Assembly (NCBI GenBank): GCA_045540295.1
Contig: JAZQGY010000015.1
Span: 523-64,522, forward strand
Length of the DNA stretch: 64,000 nt
Direction: 5' to 3'
Source: Clostridia bacterium
GTDB taxonomy: Bacteria; Bacillota; Clostridia; UMGS1840
The notes under the pieces were generated by a model that saw only the letters and a program-made list of their open reading frames with translations, searched no databases and was not told the origin of the DNA. Numbering within the stretch: the stretch's first letter is position 1; the number at the start of each line of letters is the position of its first letter. Shown piece after piece: positions 915 to 63,524 of the stretch. Made by a program: the position numbers and the translations under genes.

Positions 915-1003
915 TGGCGGAGAGGGCGGGATTCGAACCCGCGTGCGGTTGCCCGCAAACTGATTTCGAGTCAGCCCCGTTATGACCACTTCGATACCTC
1001 TCC
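915..1003 (-). tRNA. tRNA-Ser (anticodon CGA), long variable arm, encoded CCA
   Basis: The reverse complement reads GGAGAGGTATCGAAGTGGTCATAACGGGGCTGACTCGAAATCAGTTTGCGGGCAACCGCACGCGGGTTCGAATCCCGCCCTCTCCGCCA. It has a 7-bp acceptor stem, a GTTCGAATC T-loop, anticodon loop CTCGAAA and a class II variable arm. Confidence 0.88.
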
Positions 1004-8676: not shown

Positions 8677-9390
8677 TTAGTCGATTTTTTCGCAGGTAAA
8701 GTAGAAGCCGTTGTCTTCTGCGTCATAGTAGCTAGCTCTTAATTCGCCGTCTTCCATATCCCAGGTAAGGTCACATGCGCTTTCTTCCAGGTAGCCGAAG
8801 GTGTCCATCATAACCCATCTTTCTTCAGGATAGAAGTCGTCACCAATCATAATGTTTGCGGTGCCGTCTGCTAAAAATTCCATAGTTAACGCATCCGCAG
8901 GAATCTGGTCGGAAACATCTTCATCCAATACATTCAATACTTCATAAGACTGCCAGGTACCAACCACTGCCTGGAGCTCTTCCGGCATAAACTGAGTAGG
9001 ATCATAAGAGGTGTCCCCTTCTTTTACCATGTAAACATTAATGCCGAAATCCATAATATTTTCCAAATAAAGCACATTGTCGGTCAGAACAGCGGTATTG
9101 GTGATGTCTAAGGCGGGTTCTTTGAAGGTTAAGGTATCACCGGATACGGTGCCGGTTGCTTCTAATGTTTCTCCGTCAATAGAAAGAGCAACTTTTCCGT
9201 TTTCTGCAACTTTCATAGTATATGCAGCAGCTTCTTCTGCAGTCATGGTGATGTCAAAAACATCACCGCCAACGCCAACCCAGTCGCCGACAAACTTTTC
9301 ATCCAGTTTGGTGGTTGCTTTGTTGCCGCCACAAGCAGCTAAAGATAATACCATCACCATTGCCAATAAGAGTGTAAGTAGTTTTTTCAT
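8677..9390 (-). CDS. Lipoprotein, unknown function
   Basis: Lipobox LAAC. Internal duplication of a GDWVG / GTWQS beta-rich module. Resembles the 5523 and 13911 lipoproteins. Confidence 0.6.
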   Translation of the reverse strand: MKKLLTLLLAMVMVLSLAACGGNKATTKLDEKFVGDWVGVGGDVFDITMTAEEAAAYTMKVAENGKVALSIDGETLEATGTVSGDTLTFKEPALDITNTAVLTDNVLYLENIMDFGINVYMVKEGDTSYDPTQFMPEELQAVVGTWQSYEVLNVLDEDVSDQIPADALTMEFLADGTANIMIGDDFYPEERWVMMDTFGYLEESACDLTWDMEDGELRASYYDAEDNGFYFTCEKID

Positions 9391-9460
9391 GATTCTTTCT
9401 CCCTTTTTTCACAATTTGATTGTAACATATTTTTCTAAAAAAATCAATCAGTTTTTAGAA

Positions 9461-9892
9461 TTACTGGTTCACGCTTAATCCTAAATTTGCAGAGGAGGAC
9501 GCATACAGAGTCCAATTGCCGTCTTTTTCCTGAAAGATTGCTGCAAACCAAGCGGTGGAATCGTCGGATGCTTTCCAGATATAGGTTCTCTGGTTTTGGT
9601 CTTCATTGTACTGATATTCGTTAGCATCCACACCGATATAGGCTTTGAAGTCACCGTAGGTTCTCGTATCATTGGAATATGCGAACATGGTGCCGCCTTC
9701 CAGATATTCTTCCGCAGTTTTCTTTAGCACTTCCACTGTAGCCATTTCTTCTCCCATGGTCTGAGCACCTTCCTTGGTTAAGTCAATTCCAAAGGAAGAG
9801 CCGTCTTCAGGAGCTTTGGTTGCCGGAGCGCCACAAGCCGCCAAAGACAGAGCCATTACAACAACTAACAATAATGCAACTAATTTTTTCAT
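9461..9892 (-). CDS. Lipoprotein, unknown function
   Basis: Lipobox LAAC; 143 aa. Confidence 0.55.
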   Translation of the reverse strand: MKKLVALLLVVVMALSLAACGAPATKAPEDGSSFGIDLTKEGAQTMGEEMATVEVLKKTAEEYLEGGTMFAYSNDTRTYGDFKAYIGVDANEYQYNEDQNQRTYIWKASDDSTAWFAAIFQEKDGNWTLYASSSANLGLSVNQ

Positions 9893-9938
9893 ACTGTTTC
9901 CTTCTTTCTAAAAAAATTAGTCTATTTTATTTTTTTCT

Positions 9939-10715
9939 TTAAAATGATCCGCCACCGCCACCGTGAGTCCTGCCGGAAGAGGAGGTGTGAGAGGAGGAGT
10001 TGGAGGAGGTTTCTTTTTTCACCCGGGTCACATGGCTATATAAGAAAATATCTCTTGCCATATCTAAGTGATAGCTTCCCGGTTTGATATAATTTTGGGC
10101 ATAATCGTTTGTTACTGCCGTGTTCATTTTGGATAACTGAATCTTCATCATAATAAATGCCAAAATCAGCGGAATTCCAACGGCACAGCCTATCACAATG
10201 GCAACATATCCCCAGTCGGTTTCGTGGTAGGGAGTGCCATTTCTTGCCATAGAAAGCAATTCATCCGAAAGGTCAGCAAAAACTTTCATTGCCTGGTAAT
10301 AGTCTTCGTTTTTTAAGTGAGGCTCTACTTCCCGTTTCAGATATTCAATGGCATCGTCATTGAAAGCGGTTCTGCCGTATCCGTGGGTGGAAAAATGATA
10401 CTCTCTTTCCACGGTAGAAATGTAGAACAAAATACCGTCATCATTGGGACCGACACCATATTCTAAATCATCATATAAATCGTCTGCAGACGCTTCTGCA
10501 GTGCTGCTGTAAAATTCTTCGTCTAAAATAATTGCCACATCACAATCATACTGATTGCGAATCGTTTCCAACCTTTCGCAAAGTACCTCCCACTCTTCGT
10601 AGGTTAAAAGATCCGGCATATCAATCACCGGAGAAATTTCCTCGTCGGCAAAAGCAGAAGTACTTACAGTGAGGCACATGAGTAAAACAAAGAGCACAGA
10701 TAAAATTCGTTTCAT
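9939..10715 (-). CDS. TPM-domain membrane protein (YdjH/YgcG-like)
   Basis: Signal peptide, TPM-like domain, a single TM helix and a Ser/Gly tail ending in HGGGGGSF. Confidence 0.7.
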   Translation of the reverse strand: MKRILSVLFVLLMCLTVSTSAFADEEISPVIDMPDLLTYEEWEVLCERLETIRNQYDCDVAIILDEEFYSSTAEASADDLYDDLEYGVGPNDDGILFYISTVEREYHFSTHGYGRTAFNDDAIEYLKREVEPHLKNEDYYQAMKVFADLSDELLSMARNGTPYHETDWGYVAIVIGCAVGIPLILAFIMMKIQLSKMNTAVTNDYAQNYIKPGSYHLDMARDIFLYSHVTRVKKETSSNSSSHTSSSGRTHGGGGGSF

Positions 10716-10727
10716 ATCCTCACCCCC

Positions 10728-11807
10728 CTACTTTAACATCAGATATGCAATCACTGCACAAACGGCAGCTGCAATGCCTGCAATTTTCCAAAAATATTTC
10801 CACTTTTTCTTTTTATCCACAGGATATTTTCCAACCACTTTTCCGGTCTGTCCATTGATAGCATACTGATAATTCTGATCCTGATACTTAATGTTCAGCA
10901 TCCACACAGGCAACAATGCATAGCGGGTTTTTCCGTCTGAGAAGCTGACATGAGTCTGGTCAGGGAACACGCTGGTATAACCGACGGTGGTATCGCGGAA
11001 AGCGCTAACAGTGGAATTTTTTACCCGTTCGTTGGCACGGCTGATGCTATCCTCGTGAGACACATCGTATTTATCTGCCAGGTATCCGGAAAGATAAGCA
11101 CCGTTAAATTCCACGGCATCGTTATAATCAAAAGGTTCCACCGCTTCCATATAGGCATCGTCTGCCTTTTTGGAACCGTCCACGGGGATGTTGGCAAAGC
11201 CCACGCCGCCCTGACGGAGCAGTTTATAGAAATCGGTTTTGGTGTAACGGTAGTTGGAATCGCTCCAGGTGGTTACACGCTGTGCGTCGTAGGTCAGATA
11301 GGCATCGCAGTCACAGTCAAACATCCAGAACGGCACATACACCCCTGCCATTTCTTCAATTTTACGTTTGTCTCGGAAGCTGTCCGGCAAAAAAGGTGCT
11401 TTGTTGGCGGCTTCTTCAAATGCTGCCATTGCCGCTTTTTTATCCACTTTGAAGGGAATGATGTAGTCCGGGCGAAGGGTACCTTCAAACTGCCCTTTCA
11501 CAATGGTAGACTGTCCGCAATAGGGGCAAACGGTTGCACCTAAAGTGTCATCCCCTGTAATCTCTGCACCGCAGGACTTACAAGAATAGTTTACCAGATT
11601 GATATTGCCGTCCGCTTCATAGTTTCTTGGTTCATAATGCTCCCAGTCGTATTTGGATTCCTTGGTTGCCCCTTCCATTCCCTCATTCATCTGACGAATG
11701 GAGTCTAAGGAAAAGGAATTGTCACAGGAATCACAGTGCAGTTCTTCCCCTAAAAAAACCAGGGGTGCTCCACAGCATGGACATTTATAACTGTTCATGG
11801 TATCCAT
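10728..11807 (-). CDS. Double zinc-ribbon membrane-anchored protein (YdjG-like)
   Basis: YKCPCCGAPL..HCDSCDNSF and YSCKSCGAE..VCPYCG ribbons, plus a C-terminal TM helix. Sits immediately upstream of the TPM gene, as in the B. subtilis ydjGH arrangement. Confidence 0.65.
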   Translation of the reverse strand: MDTMNSYKCPCCGAPLVFLGEELHCDSCDNSFSLDSIRQMNEGMEGATKESKYDWEHYEPRNYEADGNINLVNYSCKSCGAEITGDDTLGATVCPYCGQSTIVKGQFEGTLRPDYIIPFKVDKKAAMAAFEEAANKAPFLPDSFRDKRKIEEMAGVYVPFWMFDCDCDAYLTYDAQRVTTWSDSNYRYTKTDFYKLLRQGGVGFANIPVDGSKKADDAYMEAVEPFDYNDAVEFNGAYLSGYLADKYDVSHEDSISRANERVKNSTVSAFRDTTVGYTSVFPDQTHVSFSDGKTRYALLPVWMLNIKYQDQNYQYAINGQTGKVVGKYPVDKKKKWKYFWKIAGIAAAVCAVIAYLMLK

Positions 11808-17147: not shown

Positions 17148-17460
17148 TAACCACTAGTAAACTAGTGGTTTGACTGGCCCCTAGAAGGGGCTATTACAGG
17201 CTTAACCCCTCAAAGGGGTACTGAATTATTTTATTGCATTACACGCACTGCAACCCGTAAACGGGTTAAAAAGGCTCCCTTGTGCAAAGGGAGCTGGCGA
17301 ACGAAGTGAAACTGAGGGATTGTCACAACCCCTCCGAGTTTTACTTCGCAAAACCCACCTCCCCTTACACAGGGGAGGCATTTATCTGCTAAAGCTTTTT
17401 AGCCTCCCCCAGTAGAACTGGGGGTTTATTTCCACGCCTAAAGGCACCAACAAAAAAGCA
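17148..17460. repeat. Array of about 8 short GC-rich hairpins (REP-like) between convergent genes
   Basis: ACCACTAGT/ACTAGTGGT, GCCCCT/AGGGGC, ACCCCT/AGGGGT, AACCCG/CGGGTT, GGCTCCCTT/AAGGGAGC, CCTCCCCT/AGGGGAGG and CCCCCAG/CTGGGGG. The terminal terminator is AAGCAGATT/AATCTGCTT. Confidence 0.8.
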
Positions 17461-25244: not shown

Positions 25245-25436
25245 TGACTGTTTCTCCGTCCTTTTGCCTGAGAGATTAGCCCACATGGGGCTTTACACCT
25301 TCGGCATCCTTAATCTTTTCCTGATTTTCTTCGGGAAAAGGGACTTCTCCGGAGCGCTATCCGTTTGCAGTCTTTGCTAAAAGCGCCTGAGAGCATTACT
25401 CCTTCGGCAAGGCATTCGCCTTTCTCCTGCATCCTT
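25245..25436 (-). promoter_or_regulatory. Tandem glycine riboswitch
   Basis: Minus sense: GCAGGAGAAAGGCGAATGCCTTGCCGAAGGAGTAATGCTCTCAGGCGCTTTTAGC...CTCCGGAGAAGTCC...GATGCCGAAGGTGTAAAG...CTCTCAGGCAAAAGGACGGAG. That is two GGAGA..CCGAAGG..CTCTCAGGC..A aptamers. Confidence 0.88.
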
Positions 25437-25467
25437 CACTTAGCACAATATGCATTTGTCTTCGGGC

Positions 25468-27360: not shown

Positions 27361-27370
27361 TATTTTTTAA

Positions 27371-27560
27371 TCCTCGTCTTTCTTAGGATAATCGAAATTC
27401 TGATGTGTTCGTCTCTCTTAAAAACGGCTCTTCCAGAAGAATTTTGATCCTCGTCTTTCTTAAGGTAATCGAAATTCTGATGCGTTCGTCTCTCTTAAAA
27501 ACAGCTCTTCCAAAAGAATTTTGATCCTCGTCTTTCTTAGGATAATCAAAATTCTGAAAA
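27371..27560 (-). repeat. 2.4 tandem copies of a 77-bp unit forming the holB leader
   Basis: Unit starts at 27371, 27448 and 27525. Minus-sense unit: CAGAATTTCGATTATCCTAAGAAAGACGAGGATCAAAATTCTTTTGGAAGAGCTGTTTTTAAGAGAGACGAACGCAT. Confidence 0.85.
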
Positions 27561-27655
27561 CACCTCATCCGTCAAAACCTACGGTTTTGCCACCTTCCCC
27601 TCAAGGGGAAGGCGAAAAAGTGTTGCTTTTTTGCGGTCTGTGTGCTTTTACAAGC
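27561..27655 (-). repeat. R3+R2 composite (stop-proximal module plus hairpin/GATGAGGTG module) immediately 3' of ybeY
   Basis: Minus sense: GGCTTGTAAAAGCACACAGACCGCAAAAAAGCAACACTTTTTCGCCTTCCCCTTGAGGGGAAGGTGGCAAAACCGTAGGTTTTGACGGATGAGGTG. A near-identical copy lies at 57298-57394. Confidence 0.85.
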
Positions 27656-30965: not shown

Positions 30966-30977
30966 TCGTTCTCTTGC

Positions 30978-31084
30978 GGCTTGACAAAAGGCGCAGAACC
31001 GTTAAACCTCATCACTCGGTAGGCCTTCGGATGACCCCTGTGGGTTCGGTTTTCCAATTCTGCATCCTTTTCTCTGCACCTTAC
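30978..31084 (+). repeat. R1 modular 3'UTR element (copy with the compensated AAAAGG/CCTTTT arms)
   Basis: GGCTTGACAAAAGGCGCAGAAC..AACCTCATCACTCGG..CTTCGG..GACCCCtgtGGGTT..ATTCTGCATCCTTTTCTCTGCACCTTAC. A terminator, AGGCAT..ATGCCTTTT, follows. Confidence 0.8.
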
Positions 31085-31186
31085 ATTTTTGTATGATATA
31101 GAAGGCATGGGATTTCCTATGCCTTTTCTTTTTTAGATAGATGTTCTTTTTCTTTGTTGCCAAAGAAAAGAATTTTTTAAAAATTC

Positions 31187-38358: not shown

Positions 38359-38444
38359 TAAAGAATAAAAAAGTTGCGGTGGCAGGTTTTGCCTGCATGA
38401 CAATGCATCCAATCAGTGCCACCAATTCTGCTTTATTCTTGAAA

Positions 38445-38668
38445 CGACTTTGGATAGTGCCATACCAAAAATAATGGCGAGGTACTACCTATAAAGCTTC
38501 TGTATTCTTCGGATAGTGCCATACCAAAAACAACGGCGAGATACTGTGTATAAAGTTTTCTCAATCTTCAGATAGTGCCATACCAAAATAAAGGCGAGGT
38601 ACTACCTATAAAGTTTTCTCAATCTTCGGATAGTGCCATACCAAAAAAGTGGTATACCAAAAAAAGTC
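38445..38668 (+). repeat. Origin array U: 3.5 tandem units of 58-59 bp upstream of dnaA
   Basis: The core GGATAGTGCCATACCAAAAA starts at 38452, 38511, 38570 and 38628. The second half of each unit is GGCGAGGTACTACCTATAAAG. Confidence 0.88.
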
Positions 38669-38825: not shown

Positions 38826-40145
38826 TTGTTTAGTGTATCAGAACTCTACGAAAATGTAGTAGACATAATAAAAAGCGAAATTTCCCCGGTAGCATACAGC
38901 ACCTGGTTTTCCTCTGTTACCCCGGAAAAAATTGAAAACAACATCTTTTATTTCCGTGTTCCCATTGAATATACTCGCGATATGATTGAAAGAAAATACT
39001 CTGAACTGTTAAAAACTGCGGTGGTAACTGCATCTCAGGGACAGATTGCCGATTTTTCGTTCCTGGTGGACGACAGAAGAAACACTCCTTCTGTGTTAGA
39101 CCGGTTCTCCAATACCCAGGATGAAGTATCCACCCTAAACAAAAAATATACTTTCCAGAATTTTGTCATTGGCGAATCCAACCGTTTTGCCCATGCAGCA
39201 GCCATTGCTGTGGCAGAAAGTCCGGCAGAAAATTATAATCCTTTATTTATATACGGCGGTGTTGGTCTGGGAAAAACCCATTTGTTACATGCAATCGGTA
39301 ACCGAATTAAAGAAAACGATCCTACAAAAAAAGTGTTATACTTAACTTCAGAATCCTTCACCAATGAATTTATTGATTCCATTAAATCCGGTCAGAATAC
39401 CGCATTCCGTGATAAACTTCGCAACATTGATGTATTGATGGTAGACGACATTCAGTTTATTGGCGGAAAAGAAGGGACTCAGGAAGAATTTTTCCATACC
39501 TTCAACCATTTATATCAGAACGATAAACAGATTGTGTTATCCTCTGACCGTCCACCAAAAGATATCAGAACGTTGGAAGAAAGACTTCGAACCCGTTTTG
39601 AAGCAGGCTTGATGTGTGACATTAATGCTCCTGACTTAGAAACCAGAATTGCAATTTTAAAGAAAAAAACAGAAGAAGAAAATTTCCCTATTGACGATGA
39701 AATCATCCAGTTTATTGCATCTAAAATCAGATCTAATGTTCGTGAGCTGGAAGGAATCTTCACCCGTCTGGTTGCCTTAACAAAGCTTTCTAAAAAAGAA
39801 ATTACCAAAGAATTGGCAGAAGATGTGATCAAGGTCATCATTGCAGATTCTAAAAAGGCAAAACCCGGCATTGAAACGGTAATGGTGGAAACTGCAGGTT
39901 ACTTTAATATTGATCCACAGCTTTTAAAATCATCTTCCAAAAAGAAAGAAATCGTAAAAGCACGACAGGTGGCAATGTTTTTGGCAAGAGAAGTGCTGGA
40001 AATGAGTACCACCAAAATCGGTGAAGAATTTGAAAGAGACCATTCCACCGTGATGTATTCCATTGAAAAAATTAAAGAAACCCGTCAGACAGACGCTTAT
40101 ATTGATACCATTATTGAGGAAATCACCGGCCTCTTAGAAGATTAA
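38826..40145 (+). CDS. dnaA: Chromosomal replication initiator protein DnaA
   Basis: GGVGLGKTHLLHAIGN Walker A, a box VII-type arginine region, and the C-terminal DNA-binding domain DHSTVMYSIEKI. TTG start. Confidence 0.95.
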   Translation: MFSVSELYENVVDIIKSEISPVAYSTWFSSVTPEKIENNIFYFRVPIEYTRDMIERKYSELLKTAVVTASQGQIADFSFLVDDRRNTPSVLDRFSNTQDEVSTLNKKYTFQNFVIGESNRFAHAAAIAVAESPAENYNPLFIYGGVGLGKTHLLHAIGNRIKENDPTKKVLYLTSESFTNEFIDSIKSGQNTAFRDKLRNIDVLMVDDIQFIGGKEGTQEEFFHTFNHLYQNDKQIVLSSDRPPKDIRTLEERLRTRFEAGLMCDINAPDLETRIAILKKKTEEENFPIDDEIIQFIASKIRSNVRELEGIFTRLVALTKLSKKEITKELAEDVIKVIIADSKKAKPGIETVMVETAGYFNIDPQLLKSSSKKKEIVKARQVAMFLAREVLEMSTTKIGEEFERDHSTVMYSIEKIKETRQTDAYIDTIIEEITGLLED

Positions 40146-40435
40146 TTTTTTTAGTATAACACTATTATAAGATAGCAATAACTTAAAAATTTGTTTTTCT
40201 ATTATTTGATACCCTCTTTTTTAGTATAACACTATTATGAAATAGCAGAAACTTAATAATTTATTTTTCTATTATCTGATACCCTCTTTTTGGGATAACA
40301 CTATTATGAGATAGCAAAAACTTAAAAGAAATTTTTCGATTCATTGTTACCTTTTTTGGGATAACTCTTTTATAAGATTGTATGAATTTGAAAAATAATA
40401 CTTCTACTATTTGATACCCTCTATCATACTTTTGT
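40146..40435 (-). repeat. Origin array M: 4 tandem units (70/70/66 bp), inverted relative to U and D
   Basis: Units start at 40152, 40222, 40292 and 40358. The reverse complement of a unit, ATAATAGTGTTATACTAAAAAA, aligns with GGATAGTGCCATACCAAAAA of U. Units end in TTGATACCCTC. Confidence 0.8.
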
Positions 40436-40969: not shown

Positions 40970-41180
40970 ACAATCTTCGGATAATGTCATACTAAAAAAA
41001 TGCGAGGTACTATCTATCAAGTTTCTATATCCTTTGGATAGAGCCATACTAAAAAAAATGCGTGGTACTATCTATAAAGCTTCTGTATCCTTTGGATAGA
41101 GCCATACCAAAAAATATTTGCGAGACAATATTTTATTAATTGTACTATTTTAGAATAGTGCTATACCAAAAAAAGAGGAT
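40970..41180 (+). repeat. Origin array D: 3.5 tandem units of 57-59 bp upstream of dnaN (same family and orientation as U)
   Basis: Cores are GGATAATGTCATACTAAAAAAA at 40979, GGATAGAGCCATACTAAAAAAAA at 41036, GGATAGAGCCATACCAAAAAA at 41094, and GAATAGTGCTATACCAAAAAAA at 41153. Confidence 0.88.
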
Positions 41181-44295: not shown

Positions 44296-44895
44296 ATGAT
44301 AGCAATTATTGATTACGGTGCAGGAAATCTGTTTGGGGTTTCCAATGCGCTAAAACAGTTTACCAAAGAAGTGGAAATCACTTCCGACAAAGATACCATC
44401 CGTGCTGCCGACCATGTGATTTTGCCCGGTGTTGGAAGCTTTGACGATGCTATGGGAAGTATGAACCGCTCCGGTTTAATTGAAACCGTTTATGAAGTGA
44501 TTGATAAAAAAACTCCTTTTTTGGGAATCTGCGTGGGGCTTCAGATGTGCTTTGAGAAATCCGAGGAAGGGGTATTACCCGGTCTTGGCATTTTCCCCGG
44601 TGAAATCAAAAAGTTTCCCGTGGATATCTGCAAAAAGGTACCTCAGATTGGCTGGAATCGGGTAACCACCAAGGAAAGTCCCTTGTTTTTGGACTTGCCT
44701 GATGACTACTTCTATTTTGTGCATAGTTATTATTTACAAGCCAAAAACCGTGATGAAGTGATTGCAACGGCAGAATACGGTATTCCTTTTGACTGCGCTT
44801 ATCAGAGAGATAACGTGTTTTTAACTCAGTTTCATCCCGAAAAAAGCGGCAAAACAGGGCTAAAGCTACTTGAAAATTTTTTAGCAGTGAAATAG
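44296..44895 (+). CDS. hisH: Imidazole glycerol phosphate synthase subunit HisH
   Basis: IDYGAGNL, GICVGLQ (catalytic Cys), VPQIGWN and FHPEKS. Confidence 0.9.
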   Translation: MIAIIDYGAGNLFGVSNALKQFTKEVEITSDKDTIRAADHVILPGVGSFDDAMGSMNRSGLIETVYEVIDKKTPFLGICVGLQMCFEKSEEGVLPGLGIFPGEIKKFPVDICKKVPQIGWNRVTTKESPLFLDLPDDYFYFVHSYYLQAKNRDEVIATAEYGIPFDCAYQRDNVFLTQFHPEKSGKTGLKLLENFLAVK

Positions 44896-45337
44896 CCTTC
44901 TCCTTTGAGGAGAAGGGGGACCGCTTGCGGTGGATGAGGTGTTTTGGAATGAATCCGTTTCAGAATCAAAAACTGACCGACAATGCCAAATCTTTACGAA
45001 AAGAAATGACGAAAGAAGAACGGCATTTATGGTATGATTTTTTAAAAACATTACCCGTTACTGTCCATCGGCAAAAAGTCATTGGAAGCTATATTGTGGA
45101 TTTTTATATCGCATCTGCCAAATTAGTGATTGAACTGGACGGTTCCCAGCATTTTGAAGATGGACATCAACTACGGGATATCAAAAGAGACGAATACCTG
45201 ATGAAATTAGGGATTCGGGTACTTCGATATACTAATTTAGAAATTCAAAAAAACTTTCAAGGTGTTTGTTTGGATATTGGAAACCATTTAGACACCTCAT
45301 CAGTCACTTCGTGACAGCTTCTCCTCAAGGAGAAGCC
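44895..45337 (+). mobile_element. DUF559 gene bounded by hairpin-bearing inverted ends (R2 full-length element)
   Basis: Left end: GCCTTCTCCTTTGAGGAGAAGGGGGACCGCTTGCGGTGGATGAGGTG. Right end: CACCTCATCAGTCACTTCGTGACAGCTTCTCCTCAAGGAGAAGCC. Miniature copies lie at 48548 and 63362. Confidence 0.55.
44949..45314 (+). CDS. DUF559 (Vsr/restriction-endonuclease-like fold) protein
   Basis: LRKEMTKEERHLWYDFLK..FHRQKVIGSYIVDFY..KLVIELDGSQH..RDEYL..G..VLR is typical DUF559. The last 8 codons and the stop lie inside the right terminal module. Confidence 0.8.
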   Translation: MNPFQNQKLTDNAKSLRKEMTKEERHLWYDFLKTLPVTVHRQKVIGSYIVDFYIASAKLVIELDGSQHFEDGHQLRDIKRDEYLMKLGIRVLRYTNLEIQKNFQGVCLDIGNHLDTSSVTS

Positions 45338-45370
45338 TAAAATATGACAGAAAGGAGGTTTTTTGCTATC

Positions 45371-46045
45371 ATGGAAAAAAAGATCGGATACGTCTTCAAA
45401 AATAAAGAACTGCTTCGTAACGCCTTAACCCGTCGTTCCTATGCAGTGGAGCATAATTTGGAAGAATATAATCAGCGGTTGGAATTTTTGGGAGATTCGG
45501 TATTGGGCTTAACAATTGCCGAGGAGCTTTACAAACTGCTTCCCGATGTGAAGGAAGGGGAGCTGACCAAATTAAAAGCATCTGTAGTTTGTGAAAAATC
45601 CTTGGCCATTGTGGCAAACTCTTTGGAAATTCCCCGTTATCTTCTGATTGGGAACGGAGAAAGACTCCTGGGCATTCAAAATTTAGATTCCACCACCTCA
45701 GATACGTTGGAAGCCATTTTTGGTGCCGTGTTTTTAGACAGCGATTTCGTTACCGCCAAGAAAGTAGTGCTTCGTCTGATGCGTGACGCGGTGGCAGACA
45801 CGGTAAAAAACCGAAACATGTTGGATTCCAAGTCTAAATTACAGGAACTGGTGCAAAAGGAATCCAAAGTGGATTTAGTGTATGAACTGGTGAAATCCGA
45901 AGGGCCTGATCACGATAAGCATTTTGTTTCCCAAGTGTCTCATATGGGAAAAGTGCTGGGCGTGGGTGAAGGCAAAACCAAAAAAGAGGCAGAAAAACAA
46001 GCTGCCCGAAAAGCTATTGAAACTTACTACCCCAATGAAGTATAG
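45371..46045 (+). CDS. rnc: Ribonuclease III
   Basis: The RNase III signature NQRLEFLGDSVL and a C-terminal dsRBD (GEGKTKKEAEKQAARKAI). Confidence 0.9.
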   Translation: MEKKIGYVFKNKELLRNALTRRSYAVEHNLEEYNQRLEFLGDSVLGLTIAEELYKLLPDVKEGELTKLKASVVCEKSLAIVANSLEIPRYLLIGNGERLLGIQNLDSTTSDTLEAIFGAVFLDSDFVTAKKVVLRLMRDAVADTVKNRNMLDSKSKLQELVQKESKVDLVYELVKSEGPDHDKHFVSQVSHMGKVLGVGEGKTKKEAEKQAARKAIETYYPNEV

Positions 46046-47288: not shown

Positions 47289-47294
47289 TTTGCG

Positions 47295-47400
47295 GTTTGA
47301 TAAATGGCGCATAATTCGTTAATCTCACCGCTCGCAGTACACACAAGTACAGCTTCGGGTTCGATTAGCAAATTCTGCATCCATTTCCCTTCACCTTAGG
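47295..47400 (+). repeat. R1 modular 3'UTR element
   Basis: GTTTGATAAATGGCGCATAAT..AATCTCACCGCTC GCAGTACacacaaGTACAGC TTCGGGT..ATTCTGCATCCATTTCCCTTCACCTTAGG. Confidence 0.85.
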
Positions 47401-47477
47401 TTGGTGGATTGGAAATGCGGTGGATGAGGTGTTTTGTGCCCTTTTTCTGCGCCTTAGAGGTGGCATCACCAAATTAT

Positions 47478-48523: not shown

Positions 48524-48547
48524 AGCGGATATCAAAAGAAAAGCAAA

Positions 48548-48686
48548 GCCTTCTCCTTTGAAGAGAAGGGGGACCGCTTGCGGTATTCCAACTTAGATAT
48601 GAAAAGAAATTTTAATGGTGTCTGTCAGCATATTTTATTAGACACCTCATCAGTCACTTCGTGACAGCTTCCCGAAAAGCGGGAAG
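48548..48686 (+). mobile_element. Miniature (139 bp) deletion derivative of the DUF559 element
   Basis: Left end is GCCTTCTCCTTTGAAGAGAAGGGGGACCGCTTGCGGT. The interior, AAATTTTAATGGTGTCTGTCAGCATATTTTATTAGAC, is homologous to the 3' end of the DUF559 ORF. Right end is CACCTCATCAGTCACTTCGTGACAGCTTCCCGAAAAGCGGGAAG. Confidence 0.7.
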
Positions 48687-49717: not shown

Positions 49718-49720
49718 GAC

Positions 49721-49850
49721 GGCTTGATAAATGGCGCATAATGAATGAACCTCACCGCTCGCCGTACACGCGGTACGGCTTCGGGTAACCACCTTCGGTG
49801 TTCGGTTTCTTCATTCTGCATCCATTTCTCTTCGCCTTGGATAGAGGTTT
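49721..49850 (+). repeat. R1 modular 3'UTR element (best-preserved copy)
   Basis: GGCTTGATAAATGGCGCATAAT gaatg AACCTCACCGCTC GCCGTACacgcgGTACGGC TTCGGGT AACCACCttcGGTGTT CGGTTTCTTC ATTCTGCATCCATTTCTCTTCGCCTTGG. The terminator at 49875-49905 follows. Confidence 0.88.
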
Positions 49851-49874
49851 GGAAAAGAAATATGGAGACCGCAA

Positions 49875-49908: not shown

Positions 49909-50052
49909 AGGTGAAAATTTGTTGACACAAATTTTAATGATAATGCCTTTTGCTATCCGCAAACCTCACCTCTCAGCGTACCAATGTACGCTTTCGGGTA
50001 ACCCCTATCGGGTTCGGTTGATTGATTCTGCGTCCTTTTCCTGCACCTTAGG
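49909..50052 (+). repeat. R1 element, B-subtype (different left arm)
   Basis: AAGGTGAAAATTTGTTGACACAAATTTTAATGATAATGCCTTTTGCTATCCGC AAACCTCACCTCTC AGCGTACcaatGTACGCT TTCGGGT AACCCCtatcGGGTT..ATTCTGCGTCCTTTTCCTGCACCTTAGG. An orphan left arm, GGCTTGATAAATGGCGTACAAT, follows at 50060-50082. Confidence 0.8.
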
Positions 50053-50129
50053 TGGTGGCGGCTTGATAAATGGCGTACAATCTTTCGCAACAAAACAAAC
50101 GGGGCGACACACAGGTCACCCCCTACATA

Positions 50130-50174
50130 CCTCGCCCTTTGGGAGAGGTGGCACCGAAGGTGACGGAGAGGGCG
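50130..50174 (+). repeat. R2-like solo end (variant)
   Basis: CCTCGCCCTTTGGGAGAGG TGGCACCGAAGGTGAC GGAGAGGGCG. It has the same hairpin-hairpin-tail layout as 44895-44941 and 57342-57394. Confidence 0.5.
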
Positions 50175-53849: not shown

Positions 53850-53960
53850 TGAAATGCCTTTTGCTATCCGGAAACCTCACCTCCTAGAGTACCAATGTAC
53901 GCCTTCGGGGAATCCTGCGGTTCGGTTTGGAAATTCTATGCCCTTTTCCTTCACCTTGGA
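53850..53960 (+). repeat. R1 element, B-subtype
   Basis: ATGCCTTTTGCTATCCGG AAACCTCACCTCCT AGAGTACcaatGTACGCC TTCGGGG AATCCtgcGGTT..ATTCTATGCCCTTTTCCTTCACCTTGG. Confidence 0.8.
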
Positions 53961-53965
53961 TTACA

Positions 53966-54006
53966 GAAAAAAAGACTGCAAAGCTTTTGGCTTTTGCAGT
54001 CTTTTT
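53966..54006. terminator. Bidirectional terminator between spoIIE and the ireB-like gene
   Basis: GACTGCAAAGC ttttg GCTTTTGCAGTC, flanked by A- and T-runs. Confidence 0.8.
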
Positions 54007-57297: not shown

Positions 57298-57394
57298 GCT
57301 TGTAAAAGAACACAGACCACAAAAAAGCAACATTTTTTATAGCCTTCCCCTTGAGGGGAAGGTGGCAAAACCGTAGGTTTTGACGGATGAGGTG
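57298..57394 (+). repeat. R3+R2 composite immediately 3' of pyrH (twin of 27561-27655)
   Basis: GGCTTGTAAAAGAACACAGACCACAAAAAAGCAACATTTTTTATAGCCTTCCCCTTGAGGGGAAGGTGGCAAAACCGTAGGTTTTGACGGATGAGGTG. Confidence 0.85.
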
Positions 57395-57402
57395 TCATTT
57401 TT

Positions 57403-57549
57403 CAAAGTGAAAATTGTTTGCAACAATTTTAGATTGTAATTGCTTTTTTGTTACGAACAAACTTCACCTCTCGGCGTACCTGTGTACGCCTTCGGGTAAC
57501 CCCTACGGGTTCAGTTTGTCCGTTCTGTGCCCTTTTCCTGCACCTTAGG
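57403..57549 (+). repeat. R1 element, B-subtype
   Basis: AAAGTGAAAATTGTTTGCAACAATTTTAGATTGTAATTGC.. AAACTTCACCTCTC GGCGTACctgtGTACGCC TTCGGGT AACCCCtaCGGGTT ..GTTCTGTGCCCTTTTCCTGCACCTTAGG. Confidence 0.8.
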
Positions 57550-57680
57550 CAGCGGCATAATAAACGACGCCAAATGGATGAACCTCATCACTCGGCGTAC
57601 AGCACGTACGCCTTCGGGCTCGTCAAGGCGTTGCCTTGATTCGATTTGTGAATTCTGCATCCATTTCTCATCACCTATGG
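57550..57680 (+). repeat. R1 element, A-subtype, directly abutting the previous copy
   Basis: ..AACCTCATCACTC GGCGTACagcacGTACGCC TTCGGGC TCGTCAAGGCgtTGCCTTGATTCG ..ATTCTGCATCCATTTCTCATCACCTATGG. Confidence 0.8.
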
Positions 57681-62100: not shown

Positions 62101-63146
62101 GAAAAGTAAACTTTGTTGTTTCTACCTCTGCAAAAGGCAGACTGCCGGAACGTGACAGTGTAAAAATCAGAAGAAAAGCAGTAGAAAGAAGCGTTCCCTG
62201 CTTCACCTCTATTGATACCGCAAATGCTGTTATTAACTCCATGAAGGGAAAATATTCTGAAGCTAGCATCGAAATTGTGGATATCAACAATATGCGTGAA
62301 GAAAAAATCGCAGTAGAATTCACCAAGATGCAGAGCTTAGGAAACGACTATATCTATTTTGACTGCTTAAATAAACAAATTGATAATCCGGAAGCTTTGG
62401 CTATCCGTCTCTCCGACCGTCACTTCGGCATCGGTGCAGACGGTGCGGTAGTCATTGAAGCTTCCAAAACCGCAGATGCGAAAATGAGAATTTTCAATTC
62501 CGACGGTACCGAAGGCAGAATGGGCGGTAACGCCATCCGTTGCGTTGGTAAATATCTGTATGACAAGGGCATCGTTCCACGCGAAGATATGGAAATTGAA
62601 ACCTTGAGCGGTGTGAAAAAGCTGAAGGTGTATCCCTTGGAAGGGGAAGTTGTGGCAGCTCGTGTGGATATGGGCAAGGCAGAAACCAAGCCGGAGCTTG
62701 TTCCCGTGGTTTCCGATAAAGAAATCGTGAAAAACGAACCCATTACCGTGGCGGGAGAAGAATTCCATGTGACCTGTGTGTCTGTGGGCAATCCCCATGC
62801 GGTCGTATTTACCGACAATTTAGACACCGTGGATATGCAAAAAGTTGGTCCCGAATTTGAATATCATCCCATGTTCCCCGACAGAGTGAATCTGGAAGTG
62901 GTTACCGTAATTGATAAAAACACCTTGAAAATGCGTGTTTGGGAACGTGGTATTGGCGAAACTTTAGCGTGCGGAACCGGTGCTTGTGCAGCAGCCGTTG
63001 CAGCAATCTTAAACGGTTACTGCGAAAAAGATACCGACATCACCGTGAAGCTTCCCGGTGGCGACTTAAAAATCCGTTACACAGATTCGTCCATTCAAAT
63101 GACTGGACCTGCAGTGAAATCCTTCGAAGGTAAGGTATCTATCTAG
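59103..63146 (+). CDS. carB: Carbamoyl-phosphate synthase large subunit fused in frame to a diaminopimelate-epimerase-like domain
   Basis: Residues 1-1063 are a complete CarB: two ATP-grasp halves and an MGS-like domain ending ..IEIVDINN. Residues 1064-1347 (from ATG 62292) read MREEKIAVEFTKMQSLGNDYIYFD...ERGIGETLACGTGACAA.., which is the DapF fold. No stop codon separates the two parts. Confidence 0.8.
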   Translation: MPLNKEIKKVLVIGSGPIIIGQAAEFDYAGTQACRALKEDGLEVVLVNSNPATIMTDSKMADKIYIEPLTLPVIKRIIEKEKPDSLLSTLGGQTGLTLSMQLAKEGFLDKHNVKLLGANPETIDKAEDRQMFKDMMEKINQPVIPSKVVNTLEDALAFAHTIGYPLIIRPAFTLGGTGGGIVNNEEEMIEITTNGLRLSPITQVLVEKCVSGWKEIEFEVIRDSKGNSITVCSMENLDPVGVHTGDSIVIAPAVSLSDYEYSMLRRAALDILNELKIEGGCNCQFALNPDSFEYAVIEVNPRVSRSSALASKATGYPIAKVAAKIAIGYQLDEILNAVTGKTYACFEPAIDYVVVKFPKFPFDKFVYAKRDLGTQMKATGEVMAIGATFEEAIMKAVRGAEISKDSMRHKDLVGLSDDVIMEKLHQCNDERIFVVYEAITRGVSIDTIYDITKIDRWFLSKLANIFKMESRLKEETLTKELHLEAKKMGFLDKVIERLSGQKIPEKIYASYKMVDTCAGEFNAQTPYFYSSYEEANEAREFIDNNPTDKKTVIVFGSGPIRIGQGIEFDYASVHCVWALQEAGYEVVIVNNNPETVSTDFDTANRLYFEPLNPEDVMNVIHTEKPYGVVVAFGGGTAIKLTNFLQENGVRILGTGADSIDMAEDRERFDDLLERLNIKRPQGFTVLTEEEALETANRIGYPVLIRPSYVLGGQNMIIAWNDSDTKEYMKIILHGLDENPILIDKYLMGTEIEVDAISDGEDILIPGIMEHIERAGVHSGDSIAVYPAFNLDVPMIQKIIDSTKKLAVALNTKGLVNIQYLVYDNELYVIEVNPRSSRTVPYISKVTKVPMIDLATRAMLGEKLKDMGYGTGLYKNSPYVAVKVPVFSFAKLLGVDIHLGPEMKSTGEVLGIGANLEEALYKGLIAAGYKLQKKGGVFISVRNSDKAEIYGVAKGFYDLGFTVYATHGTAKILSDAGIPVIPVDKIHENAENNTLTLIESGKVNFVVSTSAKGRLPERDSVKIRRKAVERSVPCFTSIDTANAVINSMKGKYSEASIEIVDINNMREEKIAVEFTKMQSLGNDYIYFDCLNKQIDNPEALAIRLSDRHFGIGADGAVVIEASKTADAKMRIFNSDGTEGRMGGNAIRCVGKYLYDKGIVPREDMEIETLSGVKKLKVYPLEGEVVAARVDMGKAETKPELVPVVSDKEIVKNEPITVAGEEFHVTCVSVGNPHAVVFTDNLDTVDMQKVGPEFEYHPMFPDRVNLEVVTVIDKNTLKMRVWERGIGETLACGTGACAAAVAAILNGYCEKDTDITVKLPGGDLKIRYTDSSIQMTGPAVKSFEGKVSI

Positions 63147-63285
63147 GCTCGATAAATGGCGCATAATCCGTGAATCTCACCGCTCGGCGTACCGTTATGC
63201 TGTACGCAGTACTACGGCTTCGGGCTTGTCAAGGCGTTGCCTTGATCTGATTTCTCCATTCTGCATCCATTTCTCATTGCCTTAC
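63147..63285 (+). repeat. R1 modular 3'UTR element directly after the carB-dapF stop
   Basis: GGCTCGATAAATGGCGCATAAT ccgtg AATCTCACCGCTC GGCGTAC..GTACGC.. CTTCGGGC TTGTCAAGGCgtTGCCTTGATC ..ATTCTGCATCCATTTCTCATTGCCTTAC. Confidence 0.85.
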
Positions 63286-63361
63286 ATCAGGTCAAATGAT
63301 AAAAGACGAAATTCTTTCGCAAAAAGCAAAGAATTTCGTCTTTTTTTTGGTACGGGCGAAA

Positions 63362-63477
63362 GCCTTCTCCTCGAGGAGAAGGGGGACCGCTTGCGGTGGA
63401 TGAGGTGGCAAGATGCGAAGAATGTTATATAACACCTCATCAGTCACTTCGTGACAGCTTCCCCTCAAGGGGAAGCC
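63362..63477 (+). mobile_element. Miniature (116 bp) two-ended derivative of the DUF559 element
   Basis: GCCTTCTCCTCGAGGAGAAGGGGGACCGCTTGCGGTGGATGAGGTG, then 25 nt, then CACCTCATCAGTCACTTCGTGACAGCTTCCCCTCAAGGGGAAGCC. Confidence 0.7.
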
Positions 63478-63524
63478 TATCAGAACAGAGCTTCTCTCCT
63501 ACAATTTTTTCTTCTAAAAAATAC

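Follow-up and report, generated by a model that had tools for sequence, protein, structure and literature searches.

The 64,000-nt stretch of Clostridia bacterium DNA analysed here (assembly GCA_045540295.1, contig JAZQGY010000015.1; hereafter the window) carries hisZ, hisG and hisH up to position 44895 and rnc from position 45371, and between them lies a 121-codon open reading frame (ORF) of the DUF559 family (44949-45314, forward strand). This intact gene is enclosed by inverted ends of about 45 bp, with which it forms a 443-bp unit (44894-45338, forward strand) whose sequence, coordinates and repeats are as an earlier reading of the sequence alone (the sequence-only reading) had described them. 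The left end (44894-44941, forward strand; covariance model E=1.7e-7, with a supporting fold and a perfect purine-motif mirror at 0 mismatches) reads AG-CCTTCTCC-TTTGA-GGAGAAGG-GGG-ACCGCTTGCGGT-GGATGAGGTG and is made up of a pyrimidine arm CCTTCTCC (44896-44903), a purine arm GGAGAAGG (44909-44916), a linker hairpin (44920-44931) and a third-strand box GGATGAGGTG (44932-44941), the last of which doubles as Shine-Dalgarno sequence 7 nt 5' of the ATG; 47 of 47 nt of this end are identical in the relative L003. The right end (45293-45338, forward strand; covariance model E=1.1e-19, fold z=-4.9), recovered also by the motif finder and as repeat family D13, has the sequence CACCTCATC-AGTCACTTCGTGACAG-CTTCTCC-TCAA-GGAGAAG-CC (45293-45337), that is, the box complement CACCTCATC (45293-45301), a linker hairpin AGTCACTTCGTGACAG (45302-45317) and an outer hairpin GCTTCTCC-TCAA-GGAGAAGC (45317-45336), followed by CT. 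The stop codon TGA (45312-45314) and the last codons of the gene do lie within the right end, but these number six or seven (DTSSVTS) and not eight as previously read.

To our knowledge, DUF559 is a very large orphan family of small nucleases with no assigned role, and includes E. coli YcjD. The 121-aa window protein matches PF04480 with 98.3 bits (cut-off 20.6, E=3e-28) over 106 of 109 model positions, its Pfam matches being limited to DUF559 and MTES_1575, and the conserved columns of 33 homologues show D51, E62, D64, H68, D77, R93, Y94 and N96 to be invariant. A sequence search of the PDB returned only 3HRL, a Neisseria DUF559 protein (E=1.7e-10), and detected no similarity to EDxHD homing endonucleases at the sequence level. 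The top Foldseek match of the AF2 model (pLDDT 73.7) was 3R3P, the catalytic domain of the homing endonuclease I-Bth0305I (E=9e-5, TM 0.59/0.71), followed by 3HRL, RAP-domain proteins and Vsr (1VSR), and the protein is predicted to be a Vsr-like or EDxHD-like PD-(D/E)XK nuclease. Searches of defence-system libraries gave only weak partial matches, to DpdF and a methyl-directed restriction enzyme, and an exact-protein look-up returned no record for the window protein or for its 100% match P0001.

On a single strand, each end combines a pyrimidine/purine hairpin (CCTTCYCC / GGRGAAGG), a linker hairpin of free sequence and a purine box GGATGAGG, three blocks in all. Among 208 end units the linker hairpin takes 120 different sequences, nearly all of them perfect 5-13-bp stems, with a mean energy of -7.3 kcal/mol versus -2.6 kcal/mol for shuffles. 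All five linker pairs covary in the 25 distinct units of equal length, with 100% of cells paired, a score that 0 of 500 shuffles reach; slid controls drop to about 55% paired, and the compensation is almost wholly Watson-Crick, with one G-U in 125 linker cells. The covariation indicates that the structure of the linker hairpin is kept under selection. In the outer hairpin one pair covaries (C-G/T-A, 14 versus 10 among the 25 distinct units), bearing out the compensated changes noticed there before. No Rfam family matched the ends at the gathering threshold, the best sub-threshold match being whalefall-1 (13.5 bits versus a threshold of 37); the only Rfam matches at that threshold in the window are a tandem glycine riboswitch (25246-25439, reverse strand) and a tRNA gene (918-1003, reverse strand).

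The three blocks are related by a mirror rule. When GGATGAGG is read antiparallel against the purine arm GGAGAAGG, 8 of 8 positions pair as the purine-motif rules demand (G on G, A or T on A), and across the family of 208 units 68 keep to the rules throughout and 136 break them at one position of seven, compared with 0.04% and 0.5% of random window 7-mers. Changes in one block are matched in the other, as in the double change from GGAGAAG/GATGAGG to GGAGAGG/GGTGAGG, and variant subfamilies follow the same rule, both by the motif finder (AAGGGAG/GAGGGAT and AGGGGAG/GAGGGGT at 17273-17377) and by reading of the sequence (GAGGGAG/GAGGGAG in L094; GGGAGAGG/GGAGAGGG at 50130). A strict motif finder (perfect 7-bp pyrimidine/purine hairpin, linker of at most 45 nt, third block with at most one mismatch) gave eight matches in the window, all of them ends of the DUF559-element family, and none in 20 shuffles. 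By sequence, then, each end is an intrastrand-triplex-type motif that, as single-stranded DNA, could fold back into a purine-motif triplex; our computed folds cover Watson-Crick pairing only. The inverted 9-mer reported in the ends by the sequence-only reading is real, but that reading missed that it mirrors the purine arm of the hairpin. The mirror assigns the ends to a known class of triplex-type repeats, BoxC/PIT/TMECO, on record in E. coli since the 1990s.

Besides the full copy, the window holds several gene-less relics. Mini 1 (48547-48686, forward strand) consists of a left end without box (48547-48584), 58 nt of the ORF 3' end (48585-48642) and a right end (48643-48686). Mini 2 (63361-63478, forward strand) retains a complete left end (63361-63407), a 25-nt interior and a complete right end (63433-63477), and its two ends, already recognised by sequence alone, match the covariance model at E=7e-20 and 6e-9 within a five-helix fold (z=-4.8). 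ORF 3' remnants are present in both minis, which repeat finding recovered at 48548-48686 and 63362-63477 (families D13 and D16). Two solo ends proposed earlier are likewise real (covariance model E=6e-12 each): one at 27561-27613 (forward strand, right-end orientation), with a different linker hairpin (CAAAACC/GGTTTTG), and one at 57341-57394 (reverse strand; left-end orientation on the forward strand), with the same linker hairpin, which lies directly after pyrH and is missing from L002 at that site. Upstream of the first of these is a 77-nt tandem repeat of three units (27365-27595), the third of which runs straight into CACCTCATC at 27561. A left-end remnant at 47416-47436 (forward strand; TGCGGTG-GATGAGGTG-TTTTG; covariance model E=0.38) occupies a site at which L003 has an entire left end.

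What had been read as a solo end at 17273-17322 is actually the left half of a variant-subfamily mini (17273-17377, forward strand), with CTCCCTT/AAGGGAG, a linker and GAGGGAT on the left and CTCCCCT/AGGGGAG, a linker and GAGGGGT on the right; the motif finder scores both units as perfect mirrors, and a sister subfamily with ends CTCCCTC/GAGGGAG holds a DUF559 gene in L094. The variant end claimed at 50130-50174 (forward strand) has the three-part design on reading the sequence, with an imperfect hairpin CCTCGCCC/GGAGAGG, a linker hairpin GGCACC/GGTGAC and a box GGAGAGGG, but as a diverged solo unit it is a weak member that matches the covariance model only at E of about 1. The model built from the ends finds seven window units at E = 1e-7 to 1e-20 (44897, 45293, 48643, 63364, 63433, 27561 and 57344), and CACCTCATC with at most one mismatch occurs 22 times in the window versus 9 expected. 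Cassettes and their wrecks are dense in the window, at about one relic per 8 kb, and they corrupt gene calls through false N- or C-terminal extensions such as ...SDEVEMN and ...PPSPQGEG.

The same unit recurs in other gut Clostridia. A scan of one genome per species yielded 79 loci from many Clostridia metagenome-assembled genomes, including Oscillospiraceae, Acutalibacteraceae, Ructibacterium and Faecousia, with proteins 60-99% identical and 80 DUF559 genes counted; close relatives of the window protein number more than 8000. Almost all loci share a bracket, which upstream comprises AAAAGCC-TTCCCC..GGGGAAGG, a second hairpin and GGATGAGGTG 5-8 nt before the ATG, and downstream CACCTCATC, a hairpin and CTTCCCC..GGGGAAGCCTTT. 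The left end is present at 66 of 80 loci, the right end at 68 and both at 59, each locus in its own genomic context, and 78 of the 80 reading frames have no internal stop (exceptions L008 and L046). The distance from left to right end is bimodal, with 61 full units (346-432 nt), 17 minis (25-70 nt) and almost no pairs in the range from 70 to 340 nt. Clostridia carry multiple copies of the gene, at sites that differ from genome to genome, with six extra copies in the flanks alone and two copies within 4 kb in L003, and the same mini interior is shared by different genomes (L014, L039) and occurs twice within L063. End modules trade sides, the window having A on the left and B' on the right and L016 having B on the left and A' on the right, which explains why some proteins have 121-aa and others 130-aa tails. 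Gene and ends are therefore a discrete unit that recurs in many Clostridia genomes at different intergenic sites. Unusual arrangements include three left and three right ends around one gene (L064, 9843-10496), four right ends in a row (L070, 1181-1484) and head-to-tail arrays of whole elements with a common spacer (L073 and L077, around 9280-10730).

We assessed whether the ends might be a generic REP sequence, the outcome that the sequence-only reading had named as refuting its claim. Covariance-model matches at E<=1e-3 number 232 in 1.1 Mb, and DUF559 homology lies within 150 nt for 172 of 208 end units, with 36 elsewhere, a roughly 90-fold enrichment beside DUF559 on which that refutation fails. 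No gene except DUF559 is bracketed in this way in 1.18 Mb, the three other (-,+) pairs being spaced 3.5-9 kb.

Turnover was followed in six syntenic genomes (the window, L003, L087, L094, L093 and L002), whose rnc proteins are 78-96% identical to that of the window; relatives were gathered through rnc homologues and contig look-ups, and a metagenome scan with the neighbouring aminotransferase gave one useful relative. At the hisH-rnc site, L003 has the same full element as the window, L094 has a DUF559 gene only 58% identical with ends CTCCCTC/GAGGGAG and box GAGGGAGAG, L002 and L087 have an unrelated palindromic mini, and L093 has a single hairpin CTTCCCC-A7G-GGGGAAGCC. At the aminotransferase-trpS site, the window has a box scar and a 98-nt insertion of another repeat, L003 a solo left end, L094, L002 and L087 the other (palindromic) mini, and L093 a 12-nt spacer. 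The trpS-DUF4432 site holds a full copy in L003 and L002, a deletion derivative in the window, L094 and L087, and a short hairpin in L093, and its derivatives are independent: the window deletion is bounded by two TTGCGGT repeats, in L087 the left end is gone, and in L094 nothing but the two outer hairpins is left. In the comparison of strains that the sequence-only reading had proposed, occupancy differs among close relatives, with apparently empty or near-empty sites. These alignments indicate that sites may stay occupied through speciation while others vary among close relatives, and that deletions between short repeats reduce copies, where they sit, to minis, solo ends and single hairpins.

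Mini 1 had been offered as an internal-deletion derivative, and it is indeed gene-less, with both outer ends and a 58-nt ORF 3' remnant. However, the full copies of L003 and L002 at the same site, together with the TTGCGGT junction, identify it as a decay product and not as evidence of trans-mobilisation; by this comparison it is an in-place deletion of a full copy between 7-nt direct repeats, and the window minis are best read as decay products formed in place. The full copy does sit where the his cluster breaks off, as had been pointed out, but the link is coincidental, and the idea that the element split the cluster was rejected, since relatives without the element share the same hisH-rnc junction.

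Between the window and L003, the element has diverged less than its surroundings. The genes hisZ, hisG, hisH, rnc and the aminotransferase are 90.2-92.4% identical, and identity over the 443-bp element reaches 98.4%, and 100% in both ends, so that 7 mismatches in 443 nt compare with about 10% in the flanks. The dense mismatches of the flanks stop at 44883 and resume at 45366, and the low-divergence tract between them (44884-45365) matches the element to within 12 and 28 nt. This coincidence suggests that the unit was installed or replaced after the flanks had diverged, with hardly any co-conversion of the flanks, and by these alignments the window copy is much younger than its surroundings.

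The termini themselves are inverted (AAAAG[C/G]CTTCCCC ... GGGGAAG[C/G]CTTT), with an A-run before the outer hairpin and CTTT after the right terminus (T at 83, 56 and 55%); a terminator scan did not call the right end of the window copy. The upstream neighbour is co-oriented in 48 cases versus 9, and 20 of those 48 have their stop codon within 16 nt of the left terminus. With a co-oriented gene immediately ahead of it in most cases, the cassette can use read-through for its expression, and this is the probable route for the window copy, before which a promoter scan called no promoter. One Clostridia lineage has a promoter-like repeat beside the element, TTTTTGTCCCT-aac-TTGACA-16 nt-TATACA-AGGGACAAAAA (L008 10459-10512 and 11145-11175; L095 2925-2952 and 3405-3435; also L004, L005, L009-L011, L013, L014, L025, L046, L056 and L078), which may supply the element's transcription in that lineage. 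The TTTTTGTCCCT...TTGACA flank was considered as a shared insertion target and rejected, being a lineage-specific promoter-like repeat and neither a tRNA nor a general target. Carriage by phages or plasmids was not supported either, with two viral contigs and distant matches only, the element being rare there.

To look beyond Clostridia, we took distant DUF559 genes (32-48% identity) with 2.5-kb flanks from plasmid-database records and ran the strict finder on 14 loci; the distant set comprises L104 (E. coli ycjD), L105 and L107-L123, from Deinococcus, Alpha- and Gammaproteobacteria, Neisseria and Cyanobacteria. Triplex motifs lie within 150 nt of the gene at 10 of the 14 loci, with 24 motifs in 9.2 kb near the gene versus 21 in 65 kb elsewhere, and 15 of those 21 belong to one array directly downstream of a Photobacterium gene, where a single DUF559 gene is followed by an array of 16 triplex motifs. 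Inverted repeats bracket the gene at five of them, from two Deinococcus species (61 and 63 nt), Novosphingobium (47 nt, the linker being a hairpin as it is in Clostridia), D. aetherius and a Sphingomonas (26 nt each). In Shinella the sequence CCTTCTCCCC-AGC-GGGGAGAAGG-TGGCCCGAAGGGTCG-GATGAGGGGG-TT-ATG is almost a Clostridial left end (CTTCTCC...GGAGAAG-16 nt-GATGAGG). Genes from other phyla are often found inside housekeeping operons, namely sufB-sufC, paaD-paaZ, yqeY-dnaG and the hpa cluster. In E. coli a TMECO-like unit supplies the last codons of ycjD (SPSPQPSP*), the start of the gene is immediately preceded by a perfect 19-bp hairpin in which AATGAGGTGA is sequestered, and TMECO no. 9 (1351204-1351239; numbering of PMC4666352) lies between ycjD (1351407-1351760) and fabI in K-12. 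In the literature searched, which covered few subscription journals, we found no paper that links DUF559 or YcjD with BoxC/PIT/TMECO repeats, and the link is new as far as the searchable literature shows.

Taken together, these data lead us to favour, as the probable explanation, a family of selfish cassettes in which a DUF559 gene lies between triplex-type inverted ends and whose members persist, decay in place and are occasionally installed or replaced by a homing-like conversion. The nuclease would recognise the folded ends and nick there; repair would then copy the filled cassette with the conserved ends as homology, and copying would install a cassette where an end-like hairpin or a mini is already present, or replace an older cassette. 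The net effect would be cassette conversion rather than cut-and-paste transposition. For the mobile element originally suggested, the discrete recurring unit, the turnover of sites and the low divergence of the element relative to its flanks speak in its favour, but the minis are no proof of mobilisation, and target duplication and transposase are both missing. A wider proposal, which we advance tentatively and as a possibility only, is that DUF559 is the missing protein partner of BoxC/PIT/TMECO-type repeats across bacteria, a structure-specific nuclease that recognises its own cassette's ends by their intrastrand triplex or hairpin fold and creates, moves or maintains the repeats, forming a new nuclease-and-repeat class of mobile DNA parallel to RAYT/REP but with a Vsr-like fold at its base.

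Several observations weigh against conversion driven by the element. A target duplication was visible in none of the 78 junction pairs checked by eye, and the protein shows no recognisable transposase or integrase, being a bare 121-aa nuclease domain with no obvious DNA-binding module. No identical copy was found in two contexts (P0100 occurs on 7 contigs, in one context throughout), and the two L003 copies, only 83% identical, give no hint of a recent burst. None of the six genomes has a trpS-DUF4432 site free of an element or its scar, which fits long vertical inheritance, and ordinary recombination between strains could account for the young age of the window element; the relatives are without exception metagenome-assembled contigs. 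A minority of genes depart from the usual bracket, lying between two minis or outside-in, with a right end upstream and a left end downstream (L063, 9776-10573; L074, L079 and L081, around 9930-10410). With respect to the triplex, CTTCCCC, the commonest variant, has one mismatch, 4 of the 14 loci from other phyla have no strict motif, and in E. coli the triplex has been seen in vitro and not clearly in vivo (Holder et al., PMC4666352).

The main rival to homing-like conversion is a partnership of the REP/RAYT kind (REPIN and RAYT are defined in PMC3116915 and PMC3337134), in which the gene-less doublet, that is, the mini, would replicate like a REPIN, and DUF559 would be a host-retained, essentially immobile helper that disperses or maintains doublets. 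E. coli agrees with it, having one ycjD, 23 TMECO units and five A+B inverted pairs with 16-59-nt spacers (PMC4666352), as do the single Photobacterium gene with its 16-motif array, the tight clustering of Clostridial mini interiors at 25-70 nt with the near-empty range up to 340 nt, and the mini interior common to L014 and L039 and repeated in L063. The Clostridial data fit this account less well than E. coli does: the gene is multi-copy at differing sites there (again with the six flank copies and the closely spaced pair of L003), the low-divergence tract spans the whole gene-bearing unit, both window minis keep ORF 3' remnants and one is an in-place deletion by comparison with relatives, and full copies exceed minis in the sampled DNA by 61 to 17. 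We consider it unlikely, though it retains more weight with us than the two accounts that follow.

Improbable in our judgement is a purely regulatory role, in which the ends are expression signals of a potentially toxic host nuclease, the 5' hairpins and Shine-Dalgarno box controlling translation, the 3' hairpin terminating transcription, and minis and solo ends being vertically inherited wrecks. Such a role would suit the GAGGTG box 5-8 nt before the start codon at most loci, the perfect 19-bp hairpin that hides AATGAGGTGA in ycjD, the A-run and CTTT(T) on either side of the outer hairpin, and the co-orientation of DUF559 genes within operons. It accounts for the box as ribosome-binding site but not for the gene-less copies, the turnover or the age difference, since close relatives show presence, absence and replacement at the same site and the element is less diverged than its flanks. 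Nor does it explain why the ends are inverted copies of each other that trade sides (A..B' in the window, B..A' in L016), or why covariation is almost purely Watson-Crick with a single G-U in 125 linker cells; purine-motif triplexes do not form in RNA and PIT elements lack promoter and terminator activity in E. coli (both PMC4666352), and the terminator scan passed over the right end. That a generic intergenic palindrome (REP or terminator) merely happens to lie beside an unrelated gene is hardly credible: although several other repeat families share the same intergenic sites in the window genome and its relatives, the ends are roughly 90-fold enriched beside DUF559, the bracket is found at 59 of 80 loci and again in other phyla, and in 1.18 Mb no other gene is bracketed so, the only other (-,+) pairs being the three widely spaced ones.

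Among these other families, a third, palindromic mini family (tgtaGGGGACGATGCCCACATCGTCCC ... GGACAGATGTGGGCATCTGTCCCtaca; L002 6796-6884 and 8826-8888, and the same sites in L087 and L094) occupies the hisH-rnc and aminotransferase-trpS sites that hold DUF559-type elements in the window and L003, and different repeat families apparently share both sites as hot spots. A second dispersed family of about 100-190 nt, in one orientation and usually right after a stop codon, has copies at 30976-31103, 47292-47418, 49719-49859, 49948-50059, 53859-53967, 57446-57676 and 63144-63304, with GC hairpins such as GTACAC..GTAC, the motif TTCTGCATCCATTTC and no Rfam match; its 98-nt copy at 47294-47391 is missing from L003 at the same site, and the family is therefore polymorphic. 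A 32-nt motif (..GGATAGTGCCATACCAAAAA..) recurs eight times, about every 58 nt, on both sides of the ORF at 38826-40145, which we take as dnaA by synteny with L002, and four 70-nt repeats lie between dnaA and dnaN (regions 38444-38651, 40147-40421 and 40971-41176; families D2-D4). These are probably the DnaA-box clusters of a replication origin.

The unit may link long-unexplained bacterial repeats, such as BoxC of E. coli, to a protein. If this is true, two puzzles, repeats without a mobility gene and the role of DUF559, become testable by simple experiments, a second nuclease-and-repeat partnership would stand beside REP/RAYT, and a Vsr-like repair fold would have been recruited for selfish DNA outside introns and inteins.

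Compared with known systems, the element resembles IS200/IS605 and the insertion sequences that form miniature inverted-repeat elements in its very small size, its one small gene, its end hairpins and its internal-deletion derivatives that keep both ends. In contrast to these, it has no HUH or DDE transposase and no target-site duplication, at least one of its minis arose in place and not by mobilisation, and its ends are true inverted repeats, which those of IS200/IS605 are not. EDxHD homing endonucleases (PMC3239194, PMC2677866), a Vsr-like family represented by I-Bth0305I (PMC3239194), provide the best structural match, with a comparable E62/D64/H68/D77 set, and are likewise selfish nuclease genes that degenerate after fixation. 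These enzymes, however, reside in introns or inteins or free in phage genomes, with NUMOD or HTH DNA-binding domains and no terminal inverted repeats, whereas the gene described here is in no intron or intein and its protein is the catalytic domain alone. The sharp boundaries of the element and its young age relative to the flanks would fit copying.

The REP/BIME/REPIN and RAYT system, or 'REPtron' (PMC3116915, PMC3337134, PMC3333891), also places a small nuclease gene between two inverted structured repeats (here at 59 of 80 loci), with gene-less inverted doublets and single repeats scattered intergenically and long persistence in lineages. It differs in its nuclease, an HUH Y1 transposase (TnpA-REP) in place of a Vsr-like PD-(D/E)XK fold, in copy number, RAYT being usually single copy and DUF559 multi-copy in the sampled Clostridia DNA, and in its ends, which here overlap the ribosome-binding site and last codons and carry a mirror (triplex) block in place of the REP design. 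Closest in the design of the repeats are BoxC/PIT/TMECO, which occur in E. coli and other Proteobacteria. TMECO follows the pattern CCCTCNCCC-N3-6-GGGNGAGGG-N3-GGGNGAGGG, with 23 copies in MG1655 and five inverted pairs that always join type A with type B across 16-59-nt spacers; in vitro these repeats adopt triplexes, strains differ at their loci, where deletions leave a hairpin behind, and according to the authors no transposase or integrase remnants were ever found near them (PMC4666352). The same work names no mobility or nuclease gene associated with the repeats, and Holder et al. report TMECO from E. coli and Enterobacter and none from Salmonella. Here the linker is a variable hairpin of 13-40 nt and not 3 nt, a design that the published finder (ITxF), its loops limited to 1-6 nt, could not have detected; the blocks are CTTCYCC in place of CCCTCNCCC, the hosts are Firmicutes, and many copies hold a gene. 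The TMECO consensus does not describe the Clostridial blocks (CCTTCYCC / GGRGAAGG / GGATGAGG), whereas the three-block purine motif does so at 8 of 8 positions for the CTTCTCC variant, which makes the two the same design and not the same family by sequence. In both, one strand of intergenic DNA carries a pyrimidine arm, the complementary purine arm and a further purine block that mirrors this purine arm, and inverted pairs of unlike types (A+B) across short spacers recall the left and right ends of the cassette; in E. coli itself, a TMECO-like unit encodes the tail of YcjD, and TMECO no. 9 stands beside ycjD.

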